Positions 20,052-46,864 of a stretch of DNA of 55,842 nucleotides are shown here, in pieces. Below the pieces are notes generated by a model. That model ran no database searches. It was not told the origin of the DNA and saw only the letters and a program-made list of their open reading frames with translations. Source of the DNA: a virus (taxonomy: Duplodnaviria; Heunggongvirae; Uroviricota; Caudoviricetes). The first letter of the stretch is position 1; the number at the start of each line of letters is the position of its first letter. The stretch is taken from the IMG/VR virus record IMGVR_UViG_2923350032_000003; one strand, written 5' to 3'. The position numbers and the translations under genes were made by a program.

Positions 20052-20060
20052 ATGCCCCCC

Positions 20061-20083
20061 ATTAAAAATGGGGCCGAAGCCCC
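20061..20083 (-). terminator. Intrinsic terminator-like hairpin downstream of major capsid gene
   Basis: GGGGCTTCGGCCCC stem-loop followed by ATTTTTAAT on the - strand. Confidence 0.45.
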
Positions 20084-20093
20084 GTTTGAATGT

Positions 20094-21233: not shown

Positions 21234-21331
21234 AATTAAATATTCCTTAAAAATTTGCGTAATTGTGAATAGATGGAGTAATGAGCTATCCAGCCCTGAC
21301 ACCAGCTCCCATCCGGAAGCTGACAAATGTG

Positions 21332-22096: not shown

Positions 22097-22200
22097 ATTA
22101 GTACCTGGTTTAAGTCTTCCGACAGTTACGCTGCTCACCATCCGGATCGCAGCAATAAAAAAGGCCACCCGAAGGTAGCCTGTTGTAATAAATGATTTAT

Positions 22201-24703: not shown

Positions 24704-24705
24704 AA

Positions 24706-26016
24706 TTAAATCCGAAGTGATGTGACTCTTCCGGTCGGTTTGACAATAGGGAATTGCTTAACGATGAAATAACCTCCGGCATCATTCGGGTGATCATTGC
24801 CAGATTTTTTATCAGGCTCCCCCTTATCATCCCAGACCTGTTGCTCCAGAGATTCGGCATATACCGGACAACGCTTCACATTAACTTTATAGCGACGCTC
24901 ACCATTGGCATTGCAGAACATTGCATTCATTGAGTTAACGCGATCTTTTACTGGCGGGTTCGAGCTGTTCACCACAACGTTAAAACCTGCCTGCTTAAGC
25001 TGGGCTATATCCGTCGTACTTGCGTTACTTGATTTTCTGGAATCTCCGGAAGCATCTGGATAAATATAAATCTCCCTCACTTTCCGGTAATCATGCCCGT
25101 CATACAGCCAGAAGCGTTCTTTAATGAGGCGGATCATATCCGGCGTATCGTAGGCATTGATGATTTCAGTTACCGCACATGGAAGCCCCAAACGCAGCAC
25201 ATGGACGATTCCCGCCATCTTTCCAACGTTAAAATCCATCCCAATATAAATCGGCTCCCCTGGCTGCTCCACTTCTTCGCAATTATTCAGTTTCCGGTCA
25301 AACTGATGGTAAACAGTACCACTTGTCAGGTTAGTAAACCGTCCTAGAAGATAGGCTTTAATCAGCTCTGGAGGGTATGATTCAAGAAGTGAAGGAATGT
25401 AATCTGCTGGCAGGTTCTTTTCATTATCGAAAGTAGATGCCTGCACCAGACCATACAGTGAGGCCAGCTCTGTTTTTTCACGCACGGCTTTAACAAACTG
25501 CTCGTAGACAAATTTGAATCCTTCCGGCGTGGTTGTAACGTCAATACCGTTGCGAAGTCCATCAATCTTATAACGCATACGCGCAATTATCTTGCGCCAC
25601 GCCATTCTGGCTTTTTCCTTCGGCAAAATGTCCAGTTCATCCACCAGCGCATTACCAATTTTGAAACCGACGATCGTTTGTGGCTTCTCCATCGATCTGC
25701 AGATAGTGGTTCCCCGATACTGGCGTCCGTAATAAAAGTGAACCTCTTTATTTCCCTCATTAATTTTTACGTTCAATCCCCAGTCAGCAGCAACTTCTTC
25801 CACTGTAGGGTAAAAAATATCGCGAATTTGGGGATACGTTGGCGCAAAATATCCCTGATTTATACCTGGATGCTCCCAAATCCCCTTGCATATGCCGCCA
25901 CACCCAACCCATGTTTTGCCCGAGCCAAAACCAGCAATATAGGCTTTAAATTTATGGGGCATTGAAAGAAATCGCGCCTGAGGCACATTAAGCGTCGGAG
26001 AGATCATCTTCATCAC
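24706..26016 (-). CDS. Terminase large subunit
   Basis: 436 aa with Walker A-like motif AGFGSGKT near the N-terminus. Confidence 0.8.
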   Translation of the reverse strand: MMKMISPTLNVPQARFLSMPHKFKAYIAGFGSGKTWVGCGGICKGIWEHPGINQGYFAPTYPQIRDIFYPTVEEVAADWGLNVKINEGNKEVHFYYGRQYRGTTICRSMEKPQTIVGFKIGNALVDELDILPKEKARMAWRKIIARMRYKIDGLRNGIDVTTTPEGFKFVYEQFVKAVREKTELASLYGLVQASTFDNEKNLPADYIPSLLESYPPELIKAYLLGRFTNLTSGTVYHQFDRKLNNCEEVEQPGEPIYIGMDFNVGKMAGIVHVLRLGLPCAVTEIINAYDTPDMIRLIKERFWLYDGHDYRKVREIYIYPDASGDSRKSSNASTTDIAQLKQAGFNVVVNSSNPPVKDRVNSMNAMFCNANGERRYKVNVKRCPVYAESLEQQVWDDKGEPDKKSGNDHPNDAGGYFIVKQFPIVKPTGRVTSLRI

Positions 26017-27082
26017 TCCTTAATCTGGCATCAACCACATTAATATTGATCGCCACAGGCTGGGGATGTTCATTATCCTCCACCGTTTCGATCTCTTTGC
26101 GCAGCTTCTGGTTCTCTATTCTGCGCCGTTCAATTTCCAGTTCCTGTAGCCGCTTATCTGCACATAATGCCCCGCCAGCAGAAAGCAAACGCAACAATTC
26201 ACGCCGGGCGGCAGCCTTATCCTCCAGCAGGATCTCAACACCGTATTTTCCGAGCTTTGACCCTGCATATAATTGCCGCGCATCCCCATCAAGCAGTGTG
26301 GTATCAGCCATATAAAGCTGTCCTGTTCCCTCACCGCAGCACTTCGGGCAATCAGGATTGGGTATGGCGTTATCAACAAAGCCGAGGCCTCCATATTCCG
26401 GCTCGGGTTTACCATCTCTGGAGGCCTGTGCCGCAGCCTTATCGAATTCTGCAATATCACGCCACTGGTAGAGATGATTCTCGCCCCAGCAATAACGGCA
26501 GTTAACACGGCGAAATTGTGCCAACTGATTGGGGTCGGCCTGGACAATGGCCATCAACTGGCTCACCAGTAAATCCAGGTCTGCGGTATAGCGTTTCTGG
26601 TACTGATTGCGGAAGTAGCTGATAGCACGATAAACCCTGGCATTTCTAAGCATACGGCTGGCGTTGCTGTTAGCTGTCGCACCTTGCCCCTCATAACCAG
26701 CCAGTCGGTATGCCTCTGTCGGCTTTTTCCCCTGAGCAACCAACATGGCGAATTTTGCCTGCTGGTCAGAAATACCGAATTCATCGGGGCAGAACGAAAT
26801 TTCTTCCGTGTCCCCCTCAATCAGGAGTGCATCGGATACAGCCTTTTTTTTCTGAGATTTTCCGTTCTGCCTTTGCGCAGTCTGCGCAGTTTTTTTTCGC
26901 GCACTTTTTTGCGCAGTTTTGCGCATTTCTTTCTGCGCATTTTTCGGAGTTTTTTTGATGTAACGACGGGCTGTTGCGTAGTTCAGTCCCCTTGCTTCAC
27001 ACCATGCCACCGGAGATATACCGGAGCGGGTGTATTCAGCAATATACTCCTGCTGCAACGCCCCCCAGTCCGGTCTGCTCAT
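25988..27082 (-). CDS. Terminase small subunit (with N-terminal extension)
   Basis: 364 aa; internal segment resembles small-terminase DNA-binding domain; position upstream of TerL. Confidence 0.55.
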   Translation of the reverse strand: MSRPDWGALQQEYIAEYTRSGISPVAWCEARGLNYATARRYIKKTPKNAQKEMRKTAQKSARKKTAQTAQRQNGKSQKKKAVSDALLIEGDTEEISFCPDEFGISDQQAKFAMLVAQGKKPTEAYRLAGYEGQGATANSNASRMLRNARVYRAISYFRNQYQKRYTADLDLLVSQLMAIVQADPNQLAQFRRVNCRYCWGENHLYQWRDIAEFDKAAAQASRDGKPEPEYGGLGFVDNAIPNPDCPKCCGEGTGQLYMADTTLLDGDARQLYAGSKLGKYGVEILLEDKAAARRELLRLLSAGGALCADKRLQELEIERRRIENQKLRKEIETVEDNEHPQPVAININVVDARLRSDEDDLSDA

Positions 27083-27085
27083 CAG

Positions 27086-27295
27086 TTAGTCCTGATTTTT
27101 ATCCACCCTGAGTAGTTCGCGCAGAGCAAAGGCATCCCCTTTTCTGGCAAGCTTAAACAATGCCGCTCGTAACTCGGCTTCACCTTTCGCTCTGCCCTTA
27201 CGGATGGCCGCATAAAAATCTGTCATTGCTTCCCGATTTTCTTTCAGTCGGTTCAGATCAACATCCAGAACGTCAGCGATTTGTTGTGCAGTCAT
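27086..27295 (-). CDS. Small putative DNA-binding protein
   Basis: About 69 aa from MTAQQIADVLDV...; HTH-like; start chosen to avoid overlap with upstream gene. Confidence 0.3.
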   Translation of the reverse strand: MTAQQIADVLDVDLNRLKENREAMTDFYAAIRKGRAKGEAELRAALFKLARKGDAFALRELLRVDKNQD

Positions 27296-28205
27296 CCGGC
27301 ACGCTGCCAGAGACTCGACTTTCGAATACGGAATCATTTGTCACCCCCATTGATATGCAGGGTGTCTTCTTCCTGTATTTTTCGTGAAGGATTTTTACTG
27401 CAGCGTTGTTCCAGGTGACCTGATGGTGAATGCGTTTATGGCTGGCACCCATCAGTGAGATTTTTACGCACGACGGCGAATACATGACGGAGTAAAAACT
27501 TTTAACGTAGGTTCCGGAATCCAGATACAGCTCGGTCATTCCGCCGCTGTTTTTCTGCGTCTGTTTCTGCCCTAACTGGACAGCACCGATCGTCATAAAC
27601 AATTCACCACAGCGACCGAGATTCGTGTACGTATTCACATCCTCGTTAATGCGCCCCATGAATGAGAACGGTCGATCAACCGAACAGATAAAGCTGTTCA
27701 TTGCCTTGCGTTTCACCCACGAAGCATGGCCGCCATTGTCACCAAGAAAATCCCCGCCCTGCGACATAGCGATGGAAAGCGCGGGTATTGATTCGTAATA
27801 CGCCAGCATTTCAGAAAGGATCGCATCCAGTTTCCTTATCGGGAAATAGGCCTGGTCATAGTTGCGATCCACCCGAAACTGGAACTCGTGATAATCATCA
27901 TCGAGCTGAATGAAGTATTTACACCCGACCAGTTTTGCCAGGTCGAAACAGGCATTACGGGCGTAAAAAATTGAGCGGCGATCACCAAAATTATCGGCTT
28001 CGTCAAAACGACTGGCAATATCGGCTTTGGAAAATACCAGCACCTGTTCACCAAATTCAGCCATGTACTGATGCCGTGTCTTATCTTCATCATCAACAAC
28101 GATAAAAATTTTCCCGGTATAGCCAGCACGACGCAACGTCCGGTAAGTCAGAACTTTGTCCGGTCGCCCGTGAGTCAGAATAAAGGCGCAAAAATCATCA
28201 CGCAT
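27273..28205 (-). CDS. Hypothetical protein with GT-A-like glycosyltransferase features (DxD-type motif QLDDDY)
   Basis: 310 aa from MRDDFCAFILTHGRPDKV...; start overlaps the stop of the ParB-like gene (ATGCGTGATGA). Confidence 0.35.
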   Translation of the reverse strand: MRDDFCAFILTHGRPDKVLTYRTLRRAGYTGKIFIVVDDEDKTRHQYMAEFGEQVLVFSKADIASRFDEADNFGDRRSIFYARNACFDLAKLVGCKYFIQLDDDYHEFQFRVDRNYDQAYFPIRKLDAILSEMLAYYESIPALSIAMSQGGDFLGDNGGHASWVKRKAMNSFICSVDRPFSFMGRINEDVNTYTNLGRCGELFMTIGAVQLGQKQTQKNSGGMTELYLDSGTYVKSFYSVMYSPSCVKISLMGASHKRIHHQVTWNNAAVKILHEKYRKKTPCISMGVTNDSVFESRVSGSVPDDCTTNR

Positions 28206-28516
28206 ATTCCTCCTCCTCCTCCCCGCCATGCATGATCTCCACCATGCGCTGCGTCATTCGGACAAATCCATTTTCAATAGCCTGCTGATAATCAATGATC
28301 ACCAGCGCCGACTCCTCGAAAAGGCACTGAATTTCAGCGGGGGCATGAGCGTAATAGTCCGCAATTCTGCTGAAATTAAACACTGTGTGACGTTCTGCCG
28401 CACACAGGAGGAATTTCTCAATATCAGGATCAAGGGACGCCGAACGTATCCGGCTGATCAGCTCCTGAGTTTTCGTATCGTCGTACAGTTCACTGATATC
28501 CGGTTTACTGTAGTGG

Positions 28517-29914
<1,398 letters not shown>

Positions 29915-30390
29915 TAGGTCCGACAGCTCCATCCGCAACAGATCTTCATCCCAGCCAGCATTCATCGGCAGGCGATTATCTGCCAGGCGGTACGCCTTTT
30001 TCTGCTCATCCGTCAGGCCAGACAGAACAATGACCGGAACAGAATCCATTTTGAGCATTTCAGCCGCCATAACACGACCGTGACCCGCAATAATTTCGCC
30101 CTTTTCGTCAATCAGCACCGGATTAGTCCAGCCGAATTGCTTAATACTTTCTACCAGTTGTGCCACCTGCTCAGTACTGTGCGTCCTGGCGTTGTGCGCA
30201 TACGGTGACAATTCTTGTAATGGGCGATAGACTATCTTTAATTTCTCGCTCATACAGCCTTGCTTTATGAATAAAACGCACCCCAGCAGCCAGTGCTACT
30301 GGGGGCGGAGGTGTTGCTGGTAAAGTTAGGTATTGGATCAATGAGTGAGTCAACATAATATTAAACTCACAATTATAAATCAGCCATATA

Positions 30391-31848
30391 TTAGGAGCGC
30401 CAAAAAAAACCTGAAAACAATATAATAACAGGATAAATTTCAAGGCGACCAAGAATCATAGCTATGCACATTAAATATTTTGCAATGTCATTAAGCACTC
30501 CGAATGACGATGCAGTAGCCCCAAAACCTAATCCCATATTATTAATACATGCAGCCACTGTTGCAAATGATGTAAGAAAATCATATCCCATACCATTTAA
30601 CACCAGTATAAAAAACACCGTGAAGAGAGTATAAAGAAAAAAGAAACTCCATACAGACCTCATTACACGATCTGTAACTATCTTCCCTCCTACATTTACA
30701 CTCAACAACGCTCTGGGATGAGAAAGCTGATTTATCTCGTGTTTGCTTTGTTTGAAAAGTATAAGAAATCGAAGTGACTTAATTCCACCACAGGTTGAAC
30801 CTATACATCCCCCAAAGAAACTTGACAACAGCAAAAACACTATCGTGTGCGTGGGCCAGTTTGCATAATCCTGCGTAGCTAAACCATTATCAGTGAGCAT
30901 GGAGCTGGCAAGAAAAAACGAATGAATAAAACTTCCATGCAAGTCATACATACCTATATGCCAGACCTGGAAAGAGGTAACAATGATCACCCCTAAGGCT
31001 ATTAACAGAAAGAAACGAAGTTCAATATCTCTGATTAAAGGTTTTATCGTTTTTCTGCTAATAACAATATACCAAAGAGTGAAGTTGAAAGCCGATAGCA
31101 GGGAAAAAGAACCAGCCACCAGCTCAACCAAATAGTTATTAAAATATCCGATACTCTCGCTATGAGTTGAGAAACCACCAAGCGAAACTGTGGAAATCCC
31201 GTGACAAATAGCATCAAACAAAGGCATTCCTGCAAGTCTATAACAGACAATACAAGCAATACCTAATAAAGAATAAGTTATCCACAGTGTCCGTGACGTA
31301 TCGGCCAGGCGGGGAGTGAGTTTGTCATCCTTAAATGGCCCCGGCATTTCTGACTGATAAAGCTTTGCACCACCAATACCCAATAATGGCAATACTGCAA
31401 CCGCCAGAACAATAACTCCTAAACCACCTATAAAATTTAACTGTGACCGATAGTACAAATATGCCCGAGGTAATGAACTAACATCATCAATTACAGTTGC
31501 TCCTGTTGTTGTTATTCCAGAAACCCCTTCAAACAGAGCATCAATGAACGTTAAATTAAGTTCTGAGTCAAACCATAAAGGGAATGCACTAATAACAGAA
31601 AACAAAATCCAAAACATTACAATTATAATAAACCCATCACGGGTACGTAATTGAATGCCAGATTTCTTAGTTGTATACCACGCTCCGCCACCAATGCAAA
31701 AAAATATAACGAAAGTTATAAAGAAAACGAACAGGCTTTTTTCTTTATAAAACAATGCTACAACCATTGGTGGCAACATTGAAAGACTATAGAGCCAAAC
31801 CAGGAACCCACACATATGAGTAACAACTCTTACATGAGATGTATTCAT
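30391..31848 (-). CDS. trkG: Potassium uptake protein TrkG (Rac prophage moron)
   Basis: 485 aa from MNTSHVRVVTHMCGF...; multi-pass membrane protein of Trk family. Confidence 0.85.
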   Translation of the reverse strand: MNTSHVRVVTHMCGFLVWLYSLSMLPPMVVALFYKEKSLFVFFITFVIFFCIGGGAWYTTKKSGIQLRTRDGFIIIVMFWILFSVISAFPLWFDSELNLTFIDALFEGVSGITTTGATVIDDVSSLPRAYLYYRSQLNFIGGLGVIVLAVAVLPLLGIGGAKLYQSEMPGPFKDDKLTPRLADTSRTLWITYSLLGIACIVCYRLAGMPLFDAICHGISTVSLGGFSTHSESIGYFNNYLVELVAGSFSLLSAFNFTLWYIVISRKTIKPLIRDIELRFFLLIALGVIIVTSFQVWHIGMYDLHGSFIHSFFLASSMLTDNGLATQDYANWPTHTIVFLLLSSFFGGCIGSTCGGIKSLRFLILFKQSKHEINQLSHPRALLSVNVGGKIVTDRVMRSVWSFFFLYTLFTVFFILVLNGMGYDFLTSFATVAACINNMGLGFGATASSFGVLNDIAKYLMCIAMILGRLEIYPVIILFSGFFWRS

Positions 31849-35429: not shown

Positions 35430-35972
35430 TCAAGCCATTTTCTCAGCAAATGATTCACGCATGGGAATATATAGGGCATACTCAGCAACAGCTAACCAAT
35501 TAGCAATCCGTTTTTCGCATGTGCTAAAACACCACTCTGGGTGTGCATCATTTAGCAATTCAGCCATTTTGCGCTTAGTCATCCCCCGCCCTTCATAGCG
35601 TTGCCGGAGAATGCAAATCAATCCTGGATGCTCTGCCAGCACCTCACTTATGACTCGATCAATACATAACGCCTCTGCATCAGTACAATGCGCCAGCCAG
35701 CTCTTTTGCTTGCCGTTGATCATCTCTCGCAAAAACGCTTCCAGCTCAGCTTTCTCTATTCCCGCTTTTTTCATTCTGCGCAGGGCTTCATTAATGGCTG
35801 TTTTCGTCAGTTTTTTGGATGCCAACAACTGATTGAACATATTCCCTGACCTGCCACCGCCAATATACGACCAGCGCCCCCACATACGTAGTTTTCCCTG
35901 AATCCAGACACTTTCCAGCGTGGTGAGGCGAAGGTGTTCTCCGCTTTTTCCTGTATTCGTTGGGTAAATCAT
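35430..35972 (-). CDS. Late gene antiterminator Q-like protein
   Basis: 180 aa; position immediately upstream of the late terminator and lysis genes; weak recalled family resemblance. Confidence 0.45.
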   Translation of the reverse strand: MIYPTNTGKSGEHLRLTTLESVWIQGKLRMWGRWSYIGGGRSGNMFNQLLASKKLTKTAINEALRRMKKAGIEKAELEAFLREMINGKQKSWLAHCTDAEALCIDRVISEVLAEHPGLICILRQRYEGRGMTKRKMAELLNDAHPEWCFSTCEKRIANWLAVAEYALYIPMRESFAEKMA

Positions 35973-36259
35973 AAATGACCTTTCTTTCTCCAGATTTCTT
36001 GTGTGCGAAAAACCCCTTCAGCATGCATCAGGCGCAATTCTTCTTTGGTGTAATCGCTGGTTTTTACCCGCCCGTCGATTAGATCGTGGCATGAGCTACA
36101 GGCTATCGCCGCCTGCATATCGTGTGGTTTTGTCGCTGTTCCGCACGTCCCCGCCAGCCTGTAATGCGCCAGCACAGAGGTTTCGGGATTGTGATTGCAG
36201 TAGCCAGGGATTCTGATCTGGCACATCTGGCCTTTAGCCGCTTTACGTAAATTCACCAT
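35969..36259 (-). CDS. DUF1364-type Cys-rich nin-region protein (YbcO-like)
   Basis: 96 aa with Cys/His cluster; position upstream of Q. Confidence 0.45.
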   Translation of the reverse strand: MVNLRKAAKGQMCQIRIPGYCNHNPETSVLAHYRLAGTCGTATKPHDMQAAIACSSCHDLIDGRVKTSDYTKEELRLMHAEGVFRTQEIWRKKGHL

Positions 36260-36858
36260 TACGCAAACTCCAGTAGTTGTGCGGCCACATTTTCAACTTC
36301 CTCCTGAGAGGAGAATTTACGAAACAGAATCCAGTTCCACAGCACATTCAGTACAGATTTATAAACCTGCTGAAACTCGACTTCGTCCATATTCGCAAAA
36401 GCGATGGATTTTGCCCGACGCCCACGGCTACCGTCCGGATAAATATGCTCGGTGTAAAATCCGGCCTGAATGGTTACCCACTCGCGGAAAGCCTCAAACG
36501 ACTTTAGCAACGCCGTATCCCGGGTTCTACGAGTCGCAACGGTGTTAAGGTATTGCTCTGCGGCATCACTCAGGGCTGGCGTGTGTTCCCGACCAACTGA
36601 TTCGCACAGGTAATCAACGAAACCAGACAGCAGTTCTCGTTCGCGAGGCGTGATCGCCCCACCGACCGGAGTCCAGTAATCGAATCCCAGTTGCAGGAGT
36701 TTGAAAAAACGCTTGTGGAATGCGTAGTTACGCACACGCTTAAAGTCTGCGTGTATCCACTCACCTATTTTGATTTGATGCAGAAAATCGCAACTCTCCG
36801 GCGTCGCCGGGAGAAGTAAACCAGAAGAAGTTTGTTTGACCAGTTGTATATGCGCCAT
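36259..36858 (-). CDS. DUF1367-type nin-region protein (YdfU-like)
   Basis: 199 aa; nin-region position. Confidence 0.4.
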   Translation of the reverse strand: MAHIQLVKQTSSGLLLPATPESCDFLHQIKIGEWIHADFKRVRNYAFHKRFFKLLQLGFDYWTPVGGAITPRERELLSGFVDYLCESVGREHTPALSDAAEQYLNTVATRRTRDTALLKSFEAFREWVTIQAGFYTEHIYPDGSRGRRAKSIAFANMDEVEFQQVYKSVLNVLWNWILFRKFSSQEEVENVAAQLLEFA

Positions 36859-37138
36859 TTCTCAATCTCTCGATGGCGCAGCGCAGCAGATGCCAGTTGT
36901 TCAGGCTGACGAATAAAGTATAAATAAACTGGCTATGGTGTAAAGCCCCACATAGCATGAACAAACACTACATATCAAATAGCTGGTACAAGGATAGAAA
37001 TACGACATTTATTATTAAAAACGATTAGATAAATTACATTTTAATGTTATGCAAAAGTTCTTTTTTATCATAACATTTCAATAAAAGCATTACAGATGCA
37101 ATCATCCCGTCATCATCAATTATTTAAGGTGGTTAAAC

Positions 37139-37225
37139 ATGGAAAATAACAAGTTCGCACATCTCGCTCCTTTTTTATCCGTAATCCTTTTCGCTTGTTG
37201 TTTTATATGGGCATTATTTTTATAA
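37139..37225 (+). CDS. Small hydrophobic peptide (28 aa), putative
   Basis: Hand-translated MENNKFAHLAPFLSVILFACCFIWALFL; AAGGTGG ribosome binding site 6 nt upstream; in an AT-rich intergenic region. Confidence 0.25.
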   Translation: MENNKFAHLAPFLSVILFACCFIWALFL

Positions 37226-37626
37226 AGTAGCCACATGATAAGTTGCTGGAATCATATTTCCCACTCAAGTCATTAACATTTGATAAGATATATCTAAAAG
37301 GACGCCTTTACATTATTTATGTGTATATAATTTATTTATATACACAGTAAAGGCATCCTGGGAAAATATTTATCGTTAAAAAATACATCATAAATAATCA
37401 AGCTGAAATTTCAGAACACAACTAATACACACAATAAGGTTCAGTAACAATAATCTATGTGGACTACATCGAGATTTTTTGATTAAACTTTAATAACTTA
37501 TTCCTAACACACAGAATGCATAAACTAAAAGTAAAACAAATAGTTATACGAAAAACAACCATATTTATTATATCTTCTCCTCTAATCAACATATCAATTA
37601 TGTGTTTCATAACAGCTTGACATAAC

Positions 37627-37663
37627 CCTCAAAAACACGCATTTATAATGCATGTTTTTGAGG
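37627..37663 (+). promoter_or_regulatory. 37-bp palindromic operator (NsrR-box-like) overlapping the promoter of the yeaR-like gene
   Basis: Perfect 11-bp arms cctcaaaaaca / tgtttttgagg flanking cgcatttataatgca; TTGACA at 37617-37622; GGAGG ribosome binding site at 37662-37666. Confidence 0.5.
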
Positions 37664-37671
37664 AGGTGGTT

Positions 37672-38010
37672 ATGACACACAAGAGAATTCCTAAAGATTG
37701 GGTAATCAAACGCTCAACTCCGTTCTTCACAAAAGAGAACGTACCTTCAGCGTTATTAACACATCATAATACAGCAGCAGGTGTTTTTGGGCAGTTGTGC
37801 GTAATGGAAGGCACTGTAACATATTATGGTTTTACTGATGAGAATGCTACTGAACCGGAGATAAAAGTAGTCATTAATGCTGGCGCTTTTGCAACAAGCC
37901 CACCACAATACTGGCACCGTGTTGAACTAAGCGATGATGCTCAGTTTAATATTAACTTTTGGGTCGCTCCAGACTTCTCGGGCGAAAAAGTCTATAGCAC
38001 CAAAAAATAG
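37672..38010 (+). CDS. DUF1971 protein, YeaR-like
   Basis: 112 aa from MTHKRIPKDW...; recalled similarity to E. coli YeaR; strong ribosome binding site. Confidence 0.65.
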   Translation: MTHKRIPKDWVIKRSTPFFTKENVPSALLTHHNTAAGVFGQLCVMEGTVTYYGFTDENATEPEIKVVINAGAFATSPPQYWHRVELSDDAQFNINFWVAPDFSGEKVYSTKK

Positions 38011-38037
38011 ATGATCATATTAAAAATGCTTTAACAG

Positions 38038-38075
38038 TCAGACCCGGCAGGGCTATCCCCGACGGGTCTCATTTT
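38038..38075 (+). terminator. Intrinsic terminator after yeaR-like gene
   Basis: GACCCGGCAGGG...CCCCGACGGGTC stem followed by TCATTTTTGT. Confidence 0.5.
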
Positions 38076-38733
38076 TGTAAATATATTGGTTCTACATTGA
38101 CAGGAGACTTCAACCATAAGAAGTAATCTGAATACTTGAGCAATAAATTTACTTAAGATTAATGAGCGCACCTTGCCGGACAAAGATAAACCAAGGTAAC
38201 ACCTTTTTTCTAGCCAGTATGTAATCAATCAGAAAGCCGCTCCATAAGAACAACAGCAAGACAATAAATTGCCATTACAGCCGCAATAGCTAGCGCACAT
38301 TTGAGAACCAGCACGACAACCTCCTGTATTGGACGTACACCAGTTCTGATAAATATGAGGCTGTCTCATCATTGATTCAATATAACTATTGGGTATAGTT
38401 TCTGTGATTTTGTTCTGTAGAAATGGAACACAACAACCAGTCACCACCAGCACTTCTTTAAATACGCCAAGTCCGACGCAAGCTAACCTTCTAGTCCGCT
38501 TTGAGCGAGGAGCGGACCAAACCCGGCCAACTGACTCTTAAAGGGGCCGCAGGAATTTTTCGTCTGAACTTTCGAAGCTCCTCTCCCTGAAGACAGAAAA
38601 CTTCTGTGTGCTGTGGGAATATTGAATCTTTGCCTTAGATATAAATAATTTTATCCCGCCTGAAGTTTACATTATTTTATTTATCTGTTTTTCTAAATCA
38701 GACTGCACTCCTTACTTAAATCAGGAGCCAGTC

Positions 38734-39933
38734 ATGCCATTTGTTATTTATGTGTTTACTATCAGTGCCTTTGCGCTCGGACTCGCGGAATTTGTCCCCA
38801 TTGGGCTGACAGACGTTATGGCTCAGGGGTTGTGTGTGGGTGTGGAGCAGACCGGGGCAGCGGTTACAACCTATGCACTGGGGGCAACGTTCGCGGCACC
38901 CGTACTGTCTGCGCTGACAGCAAGCTGGAGCCGGAAAAATGTAATGCTTACAACTGCCGTTGTGTTTACTGCCGGTAGTCTGGCGGCCGCGTTTGCAGCC
39001 ACATTACCTCAGCTCCTGTTAGCGCGGTTCATTGCTGGTCTGGGACACGGCCTGTTTCTGGCTGCGGCATCCAGTACCGCAGCTCGTCTTGCTGGACCGG
39101 GTAAAGCAGGCAGAGCGGTGGCTGTGGTATTTGGTGGCTTTACTCTGGCGATGGCAATCGGCGTACCGCTGAGTACATGGTTGGGGGGGGTGGTCTCATG
39201 GCGTCCAGTTCTCGGCGCTATTGCCGCTTTTGGCGCGTTCGGATTCCTTGGACTGTTGTTCGGTATGAAAGATCCCGTACGCAGCGTGCCCGGTGAACAT
39301 AGTGACTCAGCAATGCAGAATATCGGCATGCTGTTTAACCGTAAGTTGCTGGCCGGCGCGCTGGTTACGGTGCTGGCGTATGCAGGCTCGTTTACGGCTT
39401 ACACCTTTATCGCACCTATTCTGACGCAGGTGACAGGGGTTACCGGAGCAACGGTGAGTCTGTTTATGCTGGTTTACGGTATTACAGCTGCGGTAGGTAA
39501 TATTCTTGGTGGGAAACTTACCGACAGCATGGGGGTTAATCGTGCCAATATACTCATCATTAGCGGCATTGTTGTTGTCGTGCTTGGTATGTGGCTGCTG
39601 TCATCCTCACCGGTGAGCATGGGCATTCTGGTTGCGCTGCTGGGTATGGTGACATTTGCCGCAGTGCCGGCACTGCAGGCCCGTCTGATTGGTGTCGCTG
39701 AGCAACATGCTCCTCATGCGCATGGTGTTGCTGCCGGCCTGAATATTGCGGGCTTCAACTCAGGTATAGCGCTGGGATCAGTACTGGGCAGCATTACTAT
39801 AAGCCACGCCGGTATCGTGTATACCGGTATCAGCGGTGCGATTGTTTCTCTGCTCGGCCTGCTGTTGCTGCTTGCACAAATCCGTCGCAGCCACAGTCGT
39901 AAATTTCAACAGGTTAAAATCGTAGGCCAGTAA
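38734..39933 (+). CDS. MFS transporter (12-TM efflux type)
   Basis: 399 aa, hydrophobic throughout with MFS-like loop motifs. Confidence 0.7.
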   Translation: MPFVIYVFTISAFALGLAEFVPIGLTDVMAQGLCVGVEQTGAAVTTYALGATFAAPVLSALTASWSRKNVMLTTAVVFTAGSLAAAFAATLPQLLLARFIAGLGHGLFLAAASSTAARLAGPGKAGRAVAVVFGGFTLAMAIGVPLSTWLGGVVSWRPVLGAIAAFGAFGFLGLLFGMKDPVRSVPGEHSDSAMQNIGMLFNRKLLAGALVTVLAYAGSFTAYTFIAPILTQVTGVTGATVSLFMLVYGITAAVGNILGGKLTDSMGVNRANILIISGIVVVVLGMWLLSSSPVSMGILVALLGMVTFAAVPALQARLIGVAEQHAPHAHGVAAGLNIAGFNSGIALGSVLGSITISHAGIVYTGISGAIVSLLGLLLLLAQIRRSHSRKFQQVKIVGQ

Positions 39934-39944
39934 AGGGAGGTTAT

Positions 39945-40637
39945 ATGCTTACCCGTGAAAATATGCTTAATGGCACATTTGTCAGGGTGCATGAAGCGCT
40001 GCTCCCGGCGAATATGCTCTGGGACGCTGAAAAAATACGCGCATCAATGAACTCTACTCTGGAGGAGCGCCCGACGGGTGCTCCTGTCTGGATATTTGCC
40101 TACGGGTCATTGATGTGGAATCCCGTGCTGGCGATTGAAGAAATGCAACGGGCCCGTCTGAAAGGATGGCAGCGCAGTTTCTGCATTCGTTTGATATCCG
40201 GACGAGCGACTCCTGATGTCCCCGGCAGGATGTTATCGCTCGACGAAGGTGGAATTACCGAAGGTATTGCGTTCAGACTGCCGGAATCGACTCTTATTAA
40301 TGAGCTGGAAATTGTCTGGACGCGCGAGATGATAACCGGTCTTTACCGTCCGGTCTGGGCAGACGTTTCGCTAGGAAACGGTGAGGAAATTCAGGCGCTG
40401 GCTTTCGTATCAGACAGACTGCATCCGCATTATGAACAGGACAATCTTACAGCGACCGTAGCGTTGAGCATCGCATCTGCCCGTGGAGACATTGGCACGA
40501 ATGCAGATTATGTATGGAAACTGCAGGCCACTCTGGGTGCGTTGGGAATACGGGATGATTACGTGAGTGAACTGGCCCTTGCTCTGCATGAGTCTCCCTG
40601 TAACGATAAACTTCATCAGCGAGGCGCTTCACTATGA
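39945..40637 (+). CDS. ChaC-like gamma-glutamylcyclotransferase
   Basis: 230 aa; WIFAYGSLMWNP motif and overall resemblance to E. coli ChaC. Confidence 0.7.
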   Translation: MLTRENMLNGTFVRVHEALLPANMLWDAEKIRASMNSTLEERPTGAPVWIFAYGSLMWNPVLAIEEMQRARLKGWQRSFCIRLISGRATPDVPGRMLSLDEGGITEGIAFRLPESTLINELEIVWTREMITGLYRPVWADVSLGNGEEIQALAFVSDRLHPHYEQDNLTATVALSIASARGDIGTNADYVWKLQATLGALGIRDDYVSELALALHESPCNDKLHQRGASL

Positions 40638-41515
40638 GCCATCTGAGCCATCTGCGAACGTTTCTTGAGGCCTATCGCTCTGGCTCCTTTTCAAAGGCGG
40701 CAGAACTACTGGGCATCACTCAGCCCGCGGCGTCACAGCATATCCAGTCTCTTGAGACTCTGGTTGGTAAGCGTCTGTTTATCAGGCAGGCCAGAGGCGT
40801 GACGGCAACCGAAGCTGCGGATGAGCTTGCCCGCTCAGTTTCACCCTTCATTGATGGTCTGGAAGAAAAGCTGTCCTCTTTCCGGTCAGGCTCTGTACGC
40901 GGGGGAACAATTAATCTGGCAGGACCGCCAGATTTTATTCATTCCCGGCTTGGGACAGTAATGGCTCCACTAATGAAGGAGGGGTATCGCCTACGCTTTC
41001 ATACCGGCAATAAGCAACGTATTTATTCCCTTTTGCATGACGGGAGCGCCGATCTCGCTGTTACCGCATCTATGCCTGATGACCGTCTGTACGGCTATGC
41101 ACATCTACTGACTGAACGCATGCTCCTTGTTCATGCTCCCGCCATGTCAGAGATCATCGGATCAGAACCTGGTGCTGAAACGCTTGCCTCATTACCGCTG
41201 ATTGCTTATGACGAAGAGTTGCCACTGATTAGAGCGCTCTGGGCCTCCATGTTTCAGAGAGCCCCTGAGATGCAGGCTACATTCACCATTCCGGATTTAC
41301 GTATTATCCGCGACTTGGTCTGTGACGGCCACGGGTGGACAGTGCTGCCGGATTATCACTGTGACAATGACCTGAAAAGTGGTCGCCTGATTTCAGTGAC
41401 ACCTGCAGACCTCGCTCCGACTAATCATCTTTATCTGGTCTGGAACAAAAGGACGGCTAATAACAGCCGAACCGCCTATGTTCGGGATTACATTCTTAAA
41501 ACGTTTCCGCGTTGA
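40634..41515 (+). CDS. LysR-family transcriptional regulator
   Basis: 293 aa; N-terminal HTH (FSKAAELLGITQPAASQHIQSLE); start overlaps chaC-like stop. Confidence 0.8.
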   Translation: MSHLSHLRTFLEAYRSGSFSKAAELLGITQPAASQHIQSLETLVGKRLFIRQARGVTATEAADELARSVSPFIDGLEEKLSSFRSGSVRGGTINLAGPPDFIHSRLGTVMAPLMKEGYRLRFHTGNKQRIYSLLHDGSADLAVTASMPDDRLYGYAHLLTERMLLVHAPAMSEIIGSEPGAETLASLPLIAYDEELPLIRALWASMFQRAPEMQATFTIPDLRIIRDLVCDGHGWTVLPDYHCDNDLKSGRLISVTPADLAPTNHLYLVWNKRTANNSRTAYVRDYILKTFPR

Positions 41516-41560
41516 TGTTTGAAACGGATGATTGGAGATGCGTATCATAAGTTACGTATG

Positions 41561-41600
41561 TCCGCTTCTGGCACAAAGCAGACGCCCACTCTCACGCGAA
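41561..41600. repeat. Copy A of an about 36-bp direct repeat (core TGGCACAAAGC-GAC-CCAC)
   Basis: Matches 45225-45260 at about 28 of 36 positions. Confidence 0.4.
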
Positions 41601-41645
41601 TGCTTTGCCCTTGACTTGCCAACAACCGTATCGCTTGCTCCGCAA

Positions 41646-42938
41646 CTATGGTTTTTTATTAGAATCTTCGCCACTAAATAAATTATAATAAATTGATTTT
41701 ATTAGATATCTATCAGAATCTATATGGTCAGCACGAGTAGCATGCTCTAATGTTTCAAATGCTAGGGTTTGTGCGGCTTCAGCAAAAATTCCAGGCCAAC
41801 CCTTACTCAGCATCGACAGTCCTTTAAGTACCCTTATCTGAATTTCCCTCATACTGGCACCATCGCGCGCAACAGGTGAGAAAAAGTCTTCAAGTAGATC
41901 GTTATTCTGAAGTGGTGCAACATGTACAGAAGGATATTTCACTTCTATTTCATCAGATTTATTCTGCGCGTAAGCGGAAAGTATACGTACACCTCTGCCA
42001 ATGACATCAATGGCGGTTCCAGGATCGTTCACTGCGGGGGAAAGGGCTCGGCAGGCTATTTCGGCCATGACGCTAAGACAAAATCGGGGGTCCTGAGCAA
42101 ATGAACGTACATCCGAGACAATAATCGTCTCAAGTAAATCGGTGCTGATTGATGACTCCTGGCCCTGACTCAGGTACAAAACTGGCGTGGACGGATGTAT
42201 GAAACTGCCCGGCTGCGCCACGAGGTATACATGACGGGGATCATTGGTCAGCAGCTTGCTGAGTTTCACCATATCAACATATTCAACATAGCCAATCTTT
42301 TTCGGATAAACTGCAACCGTTCCTTTCGGCTGTTCATTGTTCTCAAGCCATGGATATCCGCCGAGACAGGGATTTCTTGCTCTCGCAATAAATGTTTCGA
42401 TGGCCGCCTGTTCTACTTTTGCCGTTGTCTCACCAACCCTCCCCAGAGAGGTCAAATGCTGTATCCAGCGAAGCAATGTGATGAGGATTAAGGCAATGAC
42501 AACCAGTGTTACAATGAATAAAATGACTCTCCCCCTTTCTCCATAAGCTCCCATATTGAGGGCAATAATCCCTACCAGACTGAAGAGAAAAGAACCGATG
42601 AAGGTGGCCAGTACATTTTGTGTGGTGACGTCTTCAACAACTAAACGAGTAGCTCTGGGAGTCACATTAGTAGTGGCTGAACCGTAGGCTGTGACCATGA
42701 TGCTCAGCGAAAATGTGGTCACTGCCAGCATACTCGATGCCAGTATGTTCAGAATGTTATCGACTGCTTCCGCACCAACCTTCACGGAAACCGACTCAGG
42801 TATCATTGATTTAAAAAGAATTGATAAAAGGGCCGTTATTATTGCGACAATTGCGAATAACGTTGCCCTGAACCATAGTTTTTTAAATGTCTGCTTCAGC
42901 ATCCATTTCCAGCGTGAAATCATTCTGCATTCCCTCAT
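41646..42938 (-). CDS. DUF2254-like membrane protein
   Basis: 430 aa; N-terminal multi-TM region plus C-terminal soluble domain. Confidence 0.5.
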   Translation of the reverse strand: MRECRMISRWKWMLKQTFKKLWFRATLFAIVAIITALLSILFKSMIPESVSVKVGAEAVDNILNILASSMLAVTTFSLSIMVTAYGSATTNVTPRATRLVVEDVTTQNVLATFIGSFLFSLVGIIALNMGAYGERGRVILFIVTLVVIALILITLLRWIQHLTSLGRVGETTAKVEQAAIETFIARARNPCLGGYPWLENNEQPKGTVAVYPKKIGYVEYVDMVKLSKLLTNDPRHVYLVAQPGSFIHPSTPVLYLSQGQESSISTDLLETIIVSDVRSFAQDPRFCLSVMAEIACRALSPAVNDPGTAIDVIGRGVRILSAYAQNKSDEIEVKYPSVHVAPLQNNDLLEDFFSPVARDGASMREIQIRVLKGLSMLSKGWPGIFAEAAQTLAFETLEHATRADHIDSDRYLIKSIYYNLFSGEDSNKKP

Positions 42939-42986
42939 ATTGCAGCCGGGATAAATAAATGCCGCCTCTGTGGCGGCATGTTGCTG

Positions 42987-44990
42987 TTAACGAACCAGAT
43001 GCAGGAAGTGCAGGTGTTTTTCGTACTGGTCCAGTATGTCATTAATCAGCTGTTCCTGATTCCAGCCCATTACATCATAATTTTGGCCGCCCTCTTTGAG
43101 ATAGACTTCAGCGCGATAATATCGATGTTGTTCACTCTGCTGCTCATCATTATCCAGCGCAGCGAGCGCGAAGGTCGGTGAGTTATACCCGCGAAGCCTC
43201 ACTTCATATATATAATTCAGCTCGTTGCCCAAATCGACTTCAAGGCGAATACGATCCTCGGCGGCGTCACTGATGTGGCTTATCGTTCCCTGCTTGTTAA
43301 GTTCCTCCTGAACCAGCGTCATGGCGGGTTGGATAATGTCGTCCATAAAACGTTTCACAAGAGAGCGCTTCGGCAAATACGCGATATTGCGTAACCTTCT
43401 CTGCCAGGGAATTGGGTTACGTGCAGCCGTAGGAGCAATAGTCGCCATGCTAAGGCTTTCACGCTTGGTCAAATCCCGACGCAGGGCTTTTAACAGTCCG
43501 TATATGGATATTAATAAGATAACTGAGAAGGGCAATGCACTCGCTATCGTTACGGTTTGCAACGCACTCAGCCCCCCTGCGATCAGCAGGGCAATAGCAA
43601 CAACGCCCATGAGCGATGCCCAGAAAATTCGCTGCCAGACGGGCGTGTTTGCCACCCCACCTGATGCCAGAGTATCCACAACCATTGCCCCCGAATCAGC
43701 AGACGTTACAAAGAAGACGATGACCATCGCCATTGCAATGAATGACAGCACGGAAGAGAACGGGAAATGCTCCAGGAAATTAAACAGGGCAAGCGCAACA
43801 TCCTGCTGAACGGTATTGGCGAGGTCAGTGGCGCCCTGGTTCATGATGAGATAGATGGCGCTGTTTCCAAACACCGTCATCCACATGAGCGTAAAGCCGG
43901 CGGGAACAAACAACACGCCAGTCACGAACTCACGAATTGTCCTGCCGCGGGAAACGCGTGCAATGAACATACCTACAAACGGCGACCATGAAAGCCACCA
44001 TCCCCAGTATAATAATGTCCAGCCCCCCAGCCAGTTGCTCGACTTGGGTTCATACGCGTAAAGGTTGAACGTTTTACTCACCAGTTCCGACAGATAACCA
44101 CCCGTATTTTCCACAAATGACTTCAGCAGAAGCACAGTGGGACCCAGGCACAAGACCAGCGCCAGGAGCAACACCGCCAGGCCCAGATTAAGCTCAGACA
44201 GGATGCGTATTCCCTTGTCCAGGCCGGACACCACCGAAATCGTCGCTAACCCCGTGATGACCACGATCAAAATGACCTGTACCGTTTCATTGATGGGCAC
44301 GCCGAAAAGATGGTTCAAACCGGCATTCACCTGCAATACACCGTAACCCAGCGATGTTGCAACGCCAAAGACAGTGCCTATCACGGCGAAGATATCAACC
44401 GCGTGGCCTATAGGCCCGTAAATGCGATCGCCGATAATGGGATAGAGCGCAGAACGCAGCGTTAAAGGCAGACCGTGACGGTAACTGAAAAAGGCCAGAA
44501 TCAGCGCCACGATGGCATAAATTGCCCATGCGTGCAGACCCCAGTGGAAGAACGTCAGGCGCATGGCTTCCTTCGCTGCCGCAACGGTCTCTGGAGTGCC
44601 GACAGGTGGCGAAAGATAATGCATCACAGGTTCGGCAACGCCAAAGAACATCAGGCCGATCCCCATCCCTGCCGAAAAAAGCATCGCGAACCAGGAGTGG
44701 TAGCTGAAATCAGGCTGCGCATGGTCTGGGCCCAGCTTTATATCACCGTAACGTGAGAGTCCAAGGAACGTGACGCTCAGTAAAATCAGGGCCACAGCAA
44801 GTATGTAGAACCAGCTGGCATTCGTGAAGATTTGTTGCTGAAGTAGTTTAAAATTTTTGTCGGCGACATCCGGGAATACGGCGGCAAAGGCGACAAGAAG
44901 GAAAATTAGCAAAGCAGATGTAAAGAATACCGCTTTGTTAATCTGGCTTGTAGACTTCTTTGGGGTTGTATCATTTTCACTCATAATCAT
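42987..44990 (-). CDS. BCCT-family transporter (BetT-like)
   Basis: 667 aa; BCCT-type TM topology and long cytoplasmic C-terminal tail as in recalled BetT. Confidence 0.75.
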   Translation of the reverse strand: MIMSENDTTPKKSTSQINKAVFFTSALLIFLLVAFAAVFPDVADKNFKLLQQQIFTNASWFYILAVALILLSVTFLGLSRYGDIKLGPDHAQPDFSYHSWFAMLFSAGMGIGLMFFGVAEPVMHYLSPPVGTPETVAAAKEAMRLTFFHWGLHAWAIYAIVALILAFFSYRHGLPLTLRSALYPIIGDRIYGPIGHAVDIFAVIGTVFGVATSLGYGVLQVNAGLNHLFGVPINETVQVILIVVITGLATISVVSGLDKGIRILSELNLGLAVLLLALVLCLGPTVLLLKSFVENTGGYLSELVSKTFNLYAYEPKSSNWLGGWTLLYWGWWLSWSPFVGMFIARVSRGRTIREFVTGVLFVPAGFTLMWMTVFGNSAIYLIMNQGATDLANTVQQDVALALFNFLEHFPFSSVLSFIAMAMVIVFFVTSADSGAMVVDTLASGGVANTPVWQRIFWASLMGVVAIALLIAGGLSALQTVTIASALPFSVILLISIYGLLKALRRDLTKRESLSMATIAPTAARNPIPWQRRLRNIAYLPKRSLVKRFMDDIIQPAMTLVQEELNKQGTISHISDAAEDRIRLEVDLGNELNYIYEVRLRGYNSPTFALAALDNDEQQSEQHRYYRAEVYLKEGGQNYDVMGWNQEQLINDILDQYEKHLHFLHLVR

Positions 44991-45224
44991 TTATTCCATT
45001 AATTAAATCCGCACTGGATAGAAGGTACTACCTCTCACAGAGTAGCAAAGTTCAACTGGCTATGCGGGGTTAATCGGAATGCATGGTGGAATGAGTGCCG
45101 ATACAAATCATCCTATATTCTAAGGAGTTTTAAGTTACTCAGCCTGCCAATTACTGGGGCATTTAATTTGTATGATCTGTATCAAAGCTGGGATATAAGT
45201 TAAGTGAAGTATATTAGGCACGAA

Positions 45225-45260
45225 TTACCAGCGTCTGCTCTTGGCACAAAGCGGACAACC
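45225..45260. repeat. Copy B of the about 36-bp direct repeat
   Basis: Matches 41561-41600; lies about 240 bp upstream of the BCCT gene start. Confidence 0.4.
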
Positions 45261-45324
45261 ACGCTAGCTCTACCCTGTGCCACAAAATGTCAATTTGCAT
45301 CTGAACTAATGCACTTTAATCTCG

Positions 45325-45747
45325 TCACTTCAATAAATACCGAACATCCCCCTGATAAAACGACAATATGCGCTGCATAACTTCGCTCTTCCGGCACTCG
45401 CGACAGATTATGTTTAGGCGACTGTCGTAGCGACGTATTTCTCCGTCAGGTAATGACCAGATAAGGTCCGGATCAACCACAACCGGTTTCTTCAGCTTTG
45501 CCCTCGATAATTTTTTGCGGGCATTTTGCCAGTCTTTACGAGCCTGTTCAGACGGGAACAACCCGTAGCCAGAATTGTATACATCGCCACTGGCAACCAG
45601 CTCTCTGGCCAGAACGCTCATCAGATATCTTGTTGCCCCAGTTTTAGCTTCCAGTTGTCGTAACGTCTCGCGCCCACTCTGGCGTACGAGTTCAAGAACC
45701 TGCCCTTTAATTTTTTCCCGCTCTTCTTGTGTAAAAACTTTTGCCAC
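45325..45747 (-). CDS. Hypothetical protein in the replication module (possible winged-HTH)
   Basis: 140 aa, follows the ydaU-like gene where K-12 Rac has DnaC-like ydaV; no Walker motif. Confidence 0.35.
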   Translation of the reverse strand: MAKVFTQEEREKIKGQVLELVRQSGRETLRQLEAKTGATRYLMSVLARELVASGDVYNSGYGLFPSEQARKDWQNARKKLSRAKLKKPVVVDPDLIWSLPDGEIRRYDSRLNIICRECRKSEVMQRILSFYQGDVRYLLK

Positions 45748-45787
45748 AAGCCCTCCTGAAAATTACCTCATGACCAGAAATTAACAC

Positions 45788-46864
45788 TTACCCCCTGAAG
45801 CCCGGCGGAATTTCGTTATCCGGTTCAGAAATATGATTCACACAACGCTGGTTGTTCGTGCCGCTTACCGGGAGCAACCAGGGGTTCTCAAAATTCCGGT
45901 CCGGTCCAAAAAACGTCGTCGCTCGCTGAACAAATTCCGTTCCCGTTTTCCCGGTAGCCGCCAAGTATCTTGCGTAACGCCTCACGCCATCCAGCATGGC
46001 CTCTGGTGGCACCCCCTCGCGTAATCTGGCCTTCCAGGCACTGAAAGCGGATTTCTTCGGGTTTGCCCCAGCACGCAACGGGTACTCCCGCCAGACCTGT
46101 TCGAACACATCCGGATAATCCACTCGTCCCACAGACTGCCCGGTGTTTTCCGGGACTACCCGATCGGCTTCCCGCTGAATGGCGGAATCGGCTTCAGGCT
46201 GCTGCAGTTGGTGTGATTGCTCCGCCCTTGCGGTCATCACCTGCTGCACAGCGCCCGAATCGGCTTTCAGCGCATACGCTGAATCGGCTTCCGGTGTCGT
46301 GCCTGCTGGCTGACCAAGATTGACGGTCTGAACATCCCCTGCCTGGTTCGTGGCGTTTTTTACGCCATGGACCATAGTGTTTTGATCTTCTTGATCTGTA
46401 TCTTTATCTGTATCTTTATCTGTCGTGACTCGTCGTGACATGTGCGTGACATTTCGTGACGCGCCGTGACAATCGCCATTTTGTTCCCGCTTTCTTTCCC
46501 TCTCTCGCTGCGCCCTCTTGCGCTCTGCAGGAGATTTTGCGATTTGCGAAATATTGCCGTTGTCCTCTTTAAGCACCTGGCGTTTTTCCCATCCAGTGAT
46601 TAAATCACCATCAAGTACCCGCCCCTGCATCGTCTGCAAAATTGAATCAATTACCTCTTCTGTCACGTCGAGCGCACTTGCCAAATCTTCTGTCGTGACA
46701 TCAATGTGACCTCGCGTGACATTTCGTGACGCGCTCACCAGGAGGTGGATATACACTGCCATCACTGTTGCAATTGGCTGTCCTGACACCCTGGCAATTG
46801 TTCGCCACTTAGGGTCATTTGGCATGTCATGCCATAATCTGAGCCAGGCGTTAGCCATACTCAC
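45788..46864 (-). CDS. YdaU-like replication initiation protein
   Basis: 358 aa; internal acidic repeat TDKDTDKDTD; contains two iteron-like arrays in its coding sequence. Confidence 0.5.
   Translation of the reverse strand: MSMANAWLRLWHDMPNDPKWRTIARVSGQPIATVMAVYIHLLVSASRNVTRGHIDVTTEDLASALDVTEEVIDSILQTMQGRVLDGDLITGWEKRQVLKEDNGNISQIAKSPAERKRAQRERERKREQNGDCHGASRNVTHMSRRVTTDKDTDKDTDQEDQNTMVHGVKNATNQAGDVQTVNLGQPAGTTPEADSAYALKADSGAVQQVMTARAEQSHQLQQPEADSAIQREADRVVPENTGQSVGRVDYPDVFEQVWREYPLRAGANPKKSAFSAWKARLREGVPPEAMLDGVRRYARYLAATGKTGTEFVQRATTFFGPDRNFENPWLLPVSGTNNQRCVNHISEPDNEIPPGFRG
46391..46470. repeat. Iteron-like array 1 inside the ydaU-like gene (tandem atctgtatcttt repeats, then five CGTGAC at about 10-bp spacing)
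   Basis: tgtcgtgac / tcgtcgtgaca / tgtgcgtgac / atttcgtgac / gcgccgtgac. Confidence 0.5.
46691..46730. repeat. Iteron-like array 2 inside the ydaU-like gene (four GTGAC at 10-bp spacing)
   Basis: tgtcgtgaca / tcaatgtgac / ctcgcgtgac / atttcgtgac. Confidence 0.5.

Follow-up and report, generated by a model that had tools for sequence, protein, structure and literature searches.

Two papers (PMC7527575 and PMC7082413, both citing Karlinsey 2012) place STM1808 of Salmonella in the NsrR regulon and ascribe to it a role in virulence. The Salmonella protein has been reported to aid growth under nitrosative stress and in mice. A related DUF1971 gene is found in the yeaR-yoaG operon of E. coli K-12, whose promoter is activated by NarL and repressed by NsrR. 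The NsrR box of yeaR overlaps the promoter-proximal half of a NarL 7-2-7 site centred at −43.5 and thus covers about −43 to −21, which is the −35 region. At ytfE and hmp, NsrR represses by occupying the core promoter. Host regulators are also known to control phage morons, for example the Fur-controlled stx1 gene of Stx phages, and bor and lom of lambda. No description of a prophage-borne NsrR unit, or of a moron controlled by nitric oxide (NO) or NsrR, was found in the searchable literature.

We analyzed a 55,842-nt stretch of DNA (hereafter, the window) that represents an almost complete E. coli Rac-type prophage, extending from pinR to intR and adjoining ttcA. It contains a DUF1971 gene preceded by a striking palindrome. 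We are confident that the inner part of this palindrome, 37634–37656, is an operator for the host regulator NsrR and that it overlies the −10 element and transcription start in the promoter of a cargo unit consisting of one gene. The cargo gene would very probably be switched on by the host NO response. This type of control is already known, and the prophage gene would be a new example of it. From sequence comparisons we infer that NsrR binds here and represses the gene, that NO induces it, and where transcription starts. The features of the locus are as follows.

37594–37613, no strand assigned: apparent decayed remnant of a Fur-box-like element, aligning with the GATAATGAGATTCATTATC-type 19-mers of Kluyvera-type orthologues
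37617–37622, plus strand: −35 hexamer TTGACA, invariant in 27 of 27 E. coli prophage haplotypes
37627–37633, no strand assigned: outer left arm CCTCAAA, pairing perfectly with 37657–37663 and lying outside the NsrR box
37634–37656, no strand assigned: putative NsrR-type 11-1-11 operator AACACGCATTT-A-TAATGCATGTT, identified by matrix score and by conservation among alleles and orthologues
37640–37645, plus strand: −10 candidate CATTTA (box positions 7–12), 17 bp from TTGACA and at the homologous position in orthologues
37644–37649, plus strand: alternative −10 candidate, a perfect TATAAT inside the box, with a 21-bp spacer to TTGACA
37657–37663, no strand assigned: outer right arm TTTGAGG, overlapping the Shine-Dalgarno region by its last 4 nt (the first GAGG)
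37660–37666, plus strand: Shine-Dalgarno sequence GAGGAGG, ending 5 nt before the ATG at 37672
37672–38010, plus strand: DUF1971 gene of the STM1808 type, 112 aa (Pfam PF09313, E = 2.3e-26, residues 14–94)
38040–38076, plus strand: terminator-like stem-loop AGACCCG...CGGGTCT followed by CATTTTT (−19.4 kcal/mol for 38020–38085)

The prophage DUF1971 protein matches a Vibrio fischeri protein of solved structure (PDB 3DL3, E = 3.5e-59). It shares 79% identity with the Salmonella protein encoded directly after fadR-nhaB-dsbB, a position that we take to be STM1808 in LT2 numbering, versus only 41% with K-12 YeaR. The first-pass annotation had spoken of a yeaR-like promoter; these identities assign the gene to the STM1808 type, and it is not a yeaR orthologue. 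Members of this subfamily, with 73–82% identity, occur in Kluyvera, Leclercia, Citrobacter, Klebsiella, Raoultella, Salmonella, and many Vibrionaceae. H32 and H82 are invariant in a 17-sequence alignment that includes the prophage protein, and both residues are reportedly needed for zinc binding and NO resistance. The PHROGs family of the protein is one of unknown function. The start codon at 37672 (112 aa) is backed by homologues, the Shine-Dalgarno sequence, and RefSeq. The longest open reading frame, 37648–38010 (120 aa), begins at an ATG inside the operator, and this operator-internal start is used in some database entries (P0001, 120 aa; P0002, 121 aa).

Having its own predicted promoter and the stem-loop at 38040–38076, the gene forms a self-contained one-gene unit. 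An 800-bp AT-rich spacer (31% GC) precedes the gene, and the unit has a GC content of 41% compared with 48% in its surroundings. The early and late phage genes, DUF977/ydaV on one side and DUF1367-YbcO-Q-like genes on the other, run in the other direction. No annotated gene lies between it and an MFS transporter at 38734, and yoaG (DUF1869) is absent. The predicted promoter and terminator, the opposite orientation, and presence or absence among related phages are all features of phage morons. The unit resembles known morons in these respects and in its lower GC content, and it would likewise be expressed from the prophage in answer to a host signal. It would differ from morons such as stx1 in that the signal is NO, acting through NsrR.

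The 23-mer at 37634–37656, AACACGCATTTATAATGCATGTT, scored 20.7 bits against a symmetric weight matrix built from 26 distinct 11-1-11 sites published for E. coli CFT073 (PMC5320621, Table 4), some of which are predicted. These training sites score 12.0–31.3 bits on the same matrix (hmp 20.3, yccM 20.8, yeaR 23.9, and ytfE 31.3), and the prophage box is comparable to hmp and yccM. Ten of its 11 inner pairs are complementary. The runner-up in the window reaches 12.5 bits, leaving the main box ahead by 8 bits. The exact tail probability per position is 5e-8 on a uniform background and 2e-6 on an AT-rich one (70% AT), corresponding to about 0.003–0.12 matches expected by chance per window, or 5e-6 to 2e-4 for sites no more than 100 bp from this start codon. 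The former probability (ln −16.8) lies under the published PatSer cut-off of ln −14.28, a comparison between two matrices that are not identical. The box also fits the earlier comparative consensus gATGyAT-N5-ATrCATc save one base, and the window allele carries C at left half-site position 5, where T is well conserved.

The first-pass annotation had counted about 18 of 22 matches to an NsrR consensus. The match stands, but its register was off by one: the best register is 37634–37656, where 17 of 22 half-site positions plus the centre agree with that consensus string in a hand count. Read on the opposite strand, the string is the ytfE site of E. coli K-12. A weak second NsrR-like 23-mer, AACAACCATATTTATTATATCTT, lies at 37554–37576, 80 bp upstream of the main box; with 12.0 bits it is the third best in the window and may reflect chance in AT-rich DNA.

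The 37-bp palindrome with perfect 11-bp arms described previously is present at 37627–37663, as confirmed from the sequence and with a repeat finder. Its perfect inverted arms, CCTCAAAAACA (37627–37637) and TGTTTTTGAGG (37653–37663), enclose the centre cgcatttataatgca (37638–37652). Because this centre is itself palindromic (GCATT/AATGC), the repeat finder reports 17-nt arms (37627–37643 and 37647–37663) that are 94% complementary, with 16 of 17 positions paired around a 3-nt centre. No other inverted repeat of such quality (17-nt arms, at least 16 paired, loop of 0–5) occurs in the 55.8-kb window. Comparable repeats were likewise absent from 20 Markov-simulated windows and from 57 kb simulated at the local AT-rich composition. 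The earlier proposal that the palindrome is the operator applies to its inner 23 bp, which constitute the NsrR box; the outer arms, 7 bp on each side, lie outside it.

Conservation of the box was evaluated among E. coli prophages and across species. All 27 distinct E. coli prophage haplotypes carry the box in the same place, with alleles scoring 17.7–28.6 bits. One allele, AAGATGCATTTTTAATGCATCTT, fits gATGyAT-N5-ATrCATc perfectly and is an almost ideal site. Within the box, these haplotypes vary only at positions 3–5, 11–12, 17, and 21, which are low-information positions of the motif, and the elements AA, GCATT, AAT, CAT, and TT are invariant. In the coding sequence of the DUF1971 gene, 6.5% of columns are variable in the same set. 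A box scoring 18 bits or more lies 15–43 nt before the ATG (almost all 15–27 nt) in 53 of 80 species-representative loci, whereas 0.4% of control chunks taken from the same loci reach that score. These 53 boxes score 20.7–30.4 bits, except for one of 18.3 bits in Photobacterium damselae. The box is found in all enterobacterial loci apart from one Leclercia locus (L050), where it is shifted by one base and scores 12.2 bits. In the same 80-locus scan, a proximal box was missing from most Vibrionaceae relatives, and the link between gene and box is not universal in the family.

Kluyvera-type orthologues carry the exact K-12 ytfE box, AAGATGTATTTTAAATGCATCTT. Outside the box, the Kluyvera-type, the Citrobacter/Salmonella/Klebsiella-type, and the prophage groups have unrelated flanking sequences, which argues that the box is maintained on its own. 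Matrix score, allele conservation, and the presence of boxes in orthologues with unrelated flanks all support the original suggestion that an NsrR-type operator lies over the promoter of this prophage gene. Chromosomal orthologues of the Kluyvera and Leclercia type (79–82% protein identity) have the same layout of −35, box, Shine-Dalgarno sequence, and ATG, and the gene and its operator were probably captured jointly from an enterobacterial chromosome. Since both would have moved together, the unit would have been wired to the host sensor already.

Several further elements were seen in the orthologous loci. In Parendozoicomonas haliclonae (L110:815–861 and 902–1848), two adjacent NsrR-like boxes of 21.8 and 21.5 bits precede an ORF resembling a SAM methyltransferase, which is followed directly by the DUF1971 gene; this pair corresponds to the fused TehB architecture (PDB 3M70) divided into two ORFs. 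Strong boxes within about 1 kb also occur in Neptunomonas loci. A Fur-box-like 19-mer with 14–17 of 19 consensus matches, such as GATAATGAGATTCATTATC at L044:1417–1435, lies just upstream of the −35, 64–66 nt before the ATG, in L044 and L045–L065, and one is also present in L096. The carriers are orthologues of the Kluyvera, Leclercia, Pantoea, Enterobacter, and Buttiauxella type plus two from Photobacterium. These elements came from a mismatch scan, in which 0.6% of control chunks reach 14/19; no locus contains the exact Fur consensus. The best Fur-consensus match in the window is just 12/19, and the element appears to have been lost from, or never present in, the prophage copies and the Citrobacter/Salmonella/Klebsiella group. 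The pattern suggests dual control by Fur and NsrR in some lineages.

The arrangement of the promoter elements was compared between the prophage and its orthologues. A −35-like hexamer (TTTACA, TTGACG, TTGCCT) is located 17–18 bp upstream of box positions 7–12 in 50 of 58 distinct operators, and these box positions read TATTTT, TATATT, or CATATT in orthologues. This conserved geometry favors box positions 7–12 as the −10 element, so CATTTA is the probable −10 of the prophage promoter, even though it is a weak match to the −10 consensus in the window allele. We also considered the perfect TATAAT as the partner of TTGACA and rejected it, given its 21-bp spacer, its replacement by CATAAT or TTTAAT in other alleles, and the geometry of the orthologues. 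The promoter scan did not pick it as a standard promoter. As the first-pass annotation had stated, the box overlaps the −10 region, and both −10 candidates fall within it. Whichever −10 is used, the box would cover the −10 and the start site, spanning roughly −18 to +5. With both candidates and the predicted start inside the box and the −35 hexamer 17 bp upstream of box position 7, its position suits the block of a promoter by a repressor. The transcript predicted to begin near 37656 has a leader without stable structure and a free Shine-Dalgarno sequence. The GGAGG motif is conserved among orthologues, and the box in the window ends 15 nt before the ATG. Given the C at position 5 and the weak −10, the window allele, which is the common one in E. 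coli, may be a weaker or leakier operator and promoter than those of the orthologues.

In an unstressed lysogen, NsrR carrying its iron-sulfur cluster would occupy the box and exclude RNA polymerase. NO would nitrosylate the cluster and cause NsrR to leave the box, and the gene could then be transcribed with a short, unstructured leader. If this is correct, a temperate phage adds one more gene to the NsrR regulon of its host. The unit could then represent a lysogenic-conversion trait relevant to survival in the inflamed gut, urine, or macrophages.

The comparison with STM1808 is the closest. Besides their protein identity and shared H32 and H82, the two genes have a single 11-1-11 box tens of nucleotides before the ATG, positioned over a −10-like hexamer, and an extended palindrome. 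The Salmonella box, AAGGTGTATATTAAATACACCTT, scores 25.6 bits and is separated from the ATG by 27 nt, compared with 15 nt in the prophage. STM1808 is a core chromosomal gene after dsbB, whereas the prophage gene is cargo of a Rac-type element; the prophage promoter has a consensus −35 and a poorer −10, and the outer arm sequences are unrelated. The ytfE and hmp operators of E. coli have the same NsrR motif, but they lack the extended palindrome and precede core genes.

The yeaR promoter, proposed as the model in the first-pass annotation, is not an appropriate one. Both genes encode DUF1971 proteins and have an NsrR-type 11-1-11 box in the promoter. However, the prophage box lies on the −10 and start, not on the −35 region, and yoaG is lacking. 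A search of 35686–40078 revealed no NarL 7-2-7 site (TACYYMT-NN-AKRRGTA) with three or fewer mismatches. Only a lone heptamer-like TAACCCT is present, at 37623–37629. We rejected a yeaR-type architecture for the prophage unit on the absence of both the NarL site and yoaG.

In principle, an AT-rich palindrome that overlies a promoter could be bound by some other dimeric protein, for instance a phage repressor or a different Rrf2-family regulator (e.g. IscR), and the A-tract and T-tract flanking the hairpin resemble those of a bidirectional terminator. We consider it highly improbable that the palindrome is either of these. Additional sites would point to a phage repressor, yet the prophage, including its immunity region, contains no second copy or similar site, the next matrix score being 12.5 bits. 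Chromosomal orthologues without any phage context carry the same box, which also argues against a phage regulator. The terminator reading was rejected: the stem is AT-rich, the T run falls inside the stem and not after it, and the terminator scan made no call here. Host NsrR remains the preferred regulator for the inner 23 bp.

The NsrR model gives no reason for the 7 bp by which the palindrome extends past the box on each side. In the 27 haplotypes, the outer arms contain the most variable columns (9 of 14; five of seven in the left arm and four of seven in the right). The window and strain MB56 differ at 11 positions, of which eight fall within the palindrome, although it makes up 37 of the 349 columns (hand count from the alignment). 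Some changes among E. coli alleles are paired, A:T to C:G at 37631:37659 and C:G to A:T at 37628:37662 in the outer arms, and C:G to G:C at 37636:37654 inside the box, where pairing is also kept. Single-arm intermediates exist (L014/L020, L006). Across 65 operators, outer pairs are complementary in 56% of cells versus 43.6 ± 1.5 in shuffles, and the outer-arm covariation score of 0.337, versus 0.191, exceeds all 500 shuffles and all slid controls. For inner pairs, the value of 86.3% versus 84.3% from column composition is as expected for a protein site. Extended arms, differing greatly in sequence, are found in E. coli prophages, Salmonella (gtgattaa..ttaatcac, 8 of 10 pairs), Citrobacter (tggcatYtat..ataRatgcca, 10 of 10 pairs, covarying), Yokenella (8 of 10 pairs), and Raoultella planticola (9 of 10 pairs). 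The extension is absent from Kluyvera, Leclercia, and Klebsiella operators and from K-12 ytfE, hcp, hmp, and yeaR.

Hotspots of quasi-palindrome mutation, a process that uses one hairpin arm as the template for its partner as DNA replicates, have been described in E. coli. Template switching of this kind could have extended a palindrome nucleated by the NsrR box, leaving outer arms that are functionless by-products. We favor this explanation over a selected hairpin and hold it tentatively, as a real possibility. It is consistent with the occurrence of extended arms of unrelated sequence in several lineages and their absence from others, with near-identical haplotypes that differ mainly in the palindrome, with the high variability of the outer arms, and with the single-arm intermediates. 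However, the equally strong K-12 ytfE palindrome has no extension, nor do hcp, hmp, and yeaR (all from one genome), and the sequence data are also compatible with selection on the arms. Selection could act if a hairpin masked the Shine-Dalgarno sequence and silenced translation of any read-through transcript, such that the gene would be expressed only from the NsrR-gated start within the hairpin; we regard this as unlikely. Such arms would make the 37-bp element a combined DNA operator and RNA insulator, alleles of which, with differing operator strength (17.7–28.6 bits), would circulate among E. coli prophages.

A related proposal, to which we assign a slightly lower probability still, is that the palindrome functions as an RNA hairpin on transcripts started upstream; with half of the Shine-Dalgarno sequence (the first) masked, translation would be controlled or insulated independently of NsrR or alongside it. 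The predicted RNA fold of 37615–37690 has −23.8 kcal/mol (z −5.1), the GAGG of GAGGAGG forms the end of the right arm, and the compensatory changes at 37631:37659 and 37628:37662, like the covariation above all 500 shuffles, could reflect pairing in RNA. Yet by the conserved −35/−10 geometry, the gene's own transcript would start in the box and lack the left arm, and the promoter scan gave no convincing promoter upstream. In Salmonella and Citrobacter the arms stop at least 8 nt short of the Shine-Dalgarno sequence, any extension is missing from many orthologues, and the inner 23 bp are conserved by sequence and not by pairing. The element matched no Rfam family, yielding just sub-threshold miRNA-hairpin noise. 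Whether by templated mutation, which we favor, or by selection, the prophage palindrome offers a clear setting in which to ask why the palindromes of some transcription factors outgrow the protein footprint.

The unit is present in 466 of 5426 complete E. coli genomes (about 9%), in 37 IMG/VR contigs, and in three deposited phage genomes. In the isolated phage vB_EcoS-673R7, the one of these three genomes that was inspected, both the DUF1971 gene and the operator are present. The Rac region of K-12 presumably lacks the DUF1971 gene, and CFT073 probably does as well, its published table listing no such site. The unit also provides a natural operator-allele series for studying NsrR affinity.

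Additional features of the prophage were located by homology to NZ_CP019250.1. A block at 38734–46500 (3430010–3436260 in that sequence), between the DUF1971 gene and a DUF977 replication-region gene, contains the MFS transporter, a ChaC-like gamma-glutamylcyclotransferase, a LysR regulator, a DUF2254 protein, and a BCCT transporter. The same slot is occupied in other Rac-type prophages by Hok/Gef plus KilA-N or by QueH, and these differing contents indicate a variable cargo slot. The region at about 20000–31500 (placed by homology to 3418457–3424422) includes TolA-like ORFs, trkG, and two IS3-family insertions that interrupt the prophage. One insertion disrupts a ParB/Srx-like gene, the other lies close to the lysis genes, and the prophage of this strain is probably defective. 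Finally, the minus strand at 37299–37359 contains a large imperfect hairpin (−29.8 kcal/mol, z −8.4) with UUUU after it. Located between the DUF1971 gene and the DUF1367 gene of the nin region, it is possibly a terminator in the early rightward transcript of the phage, like tR2/tR3 of lambda.
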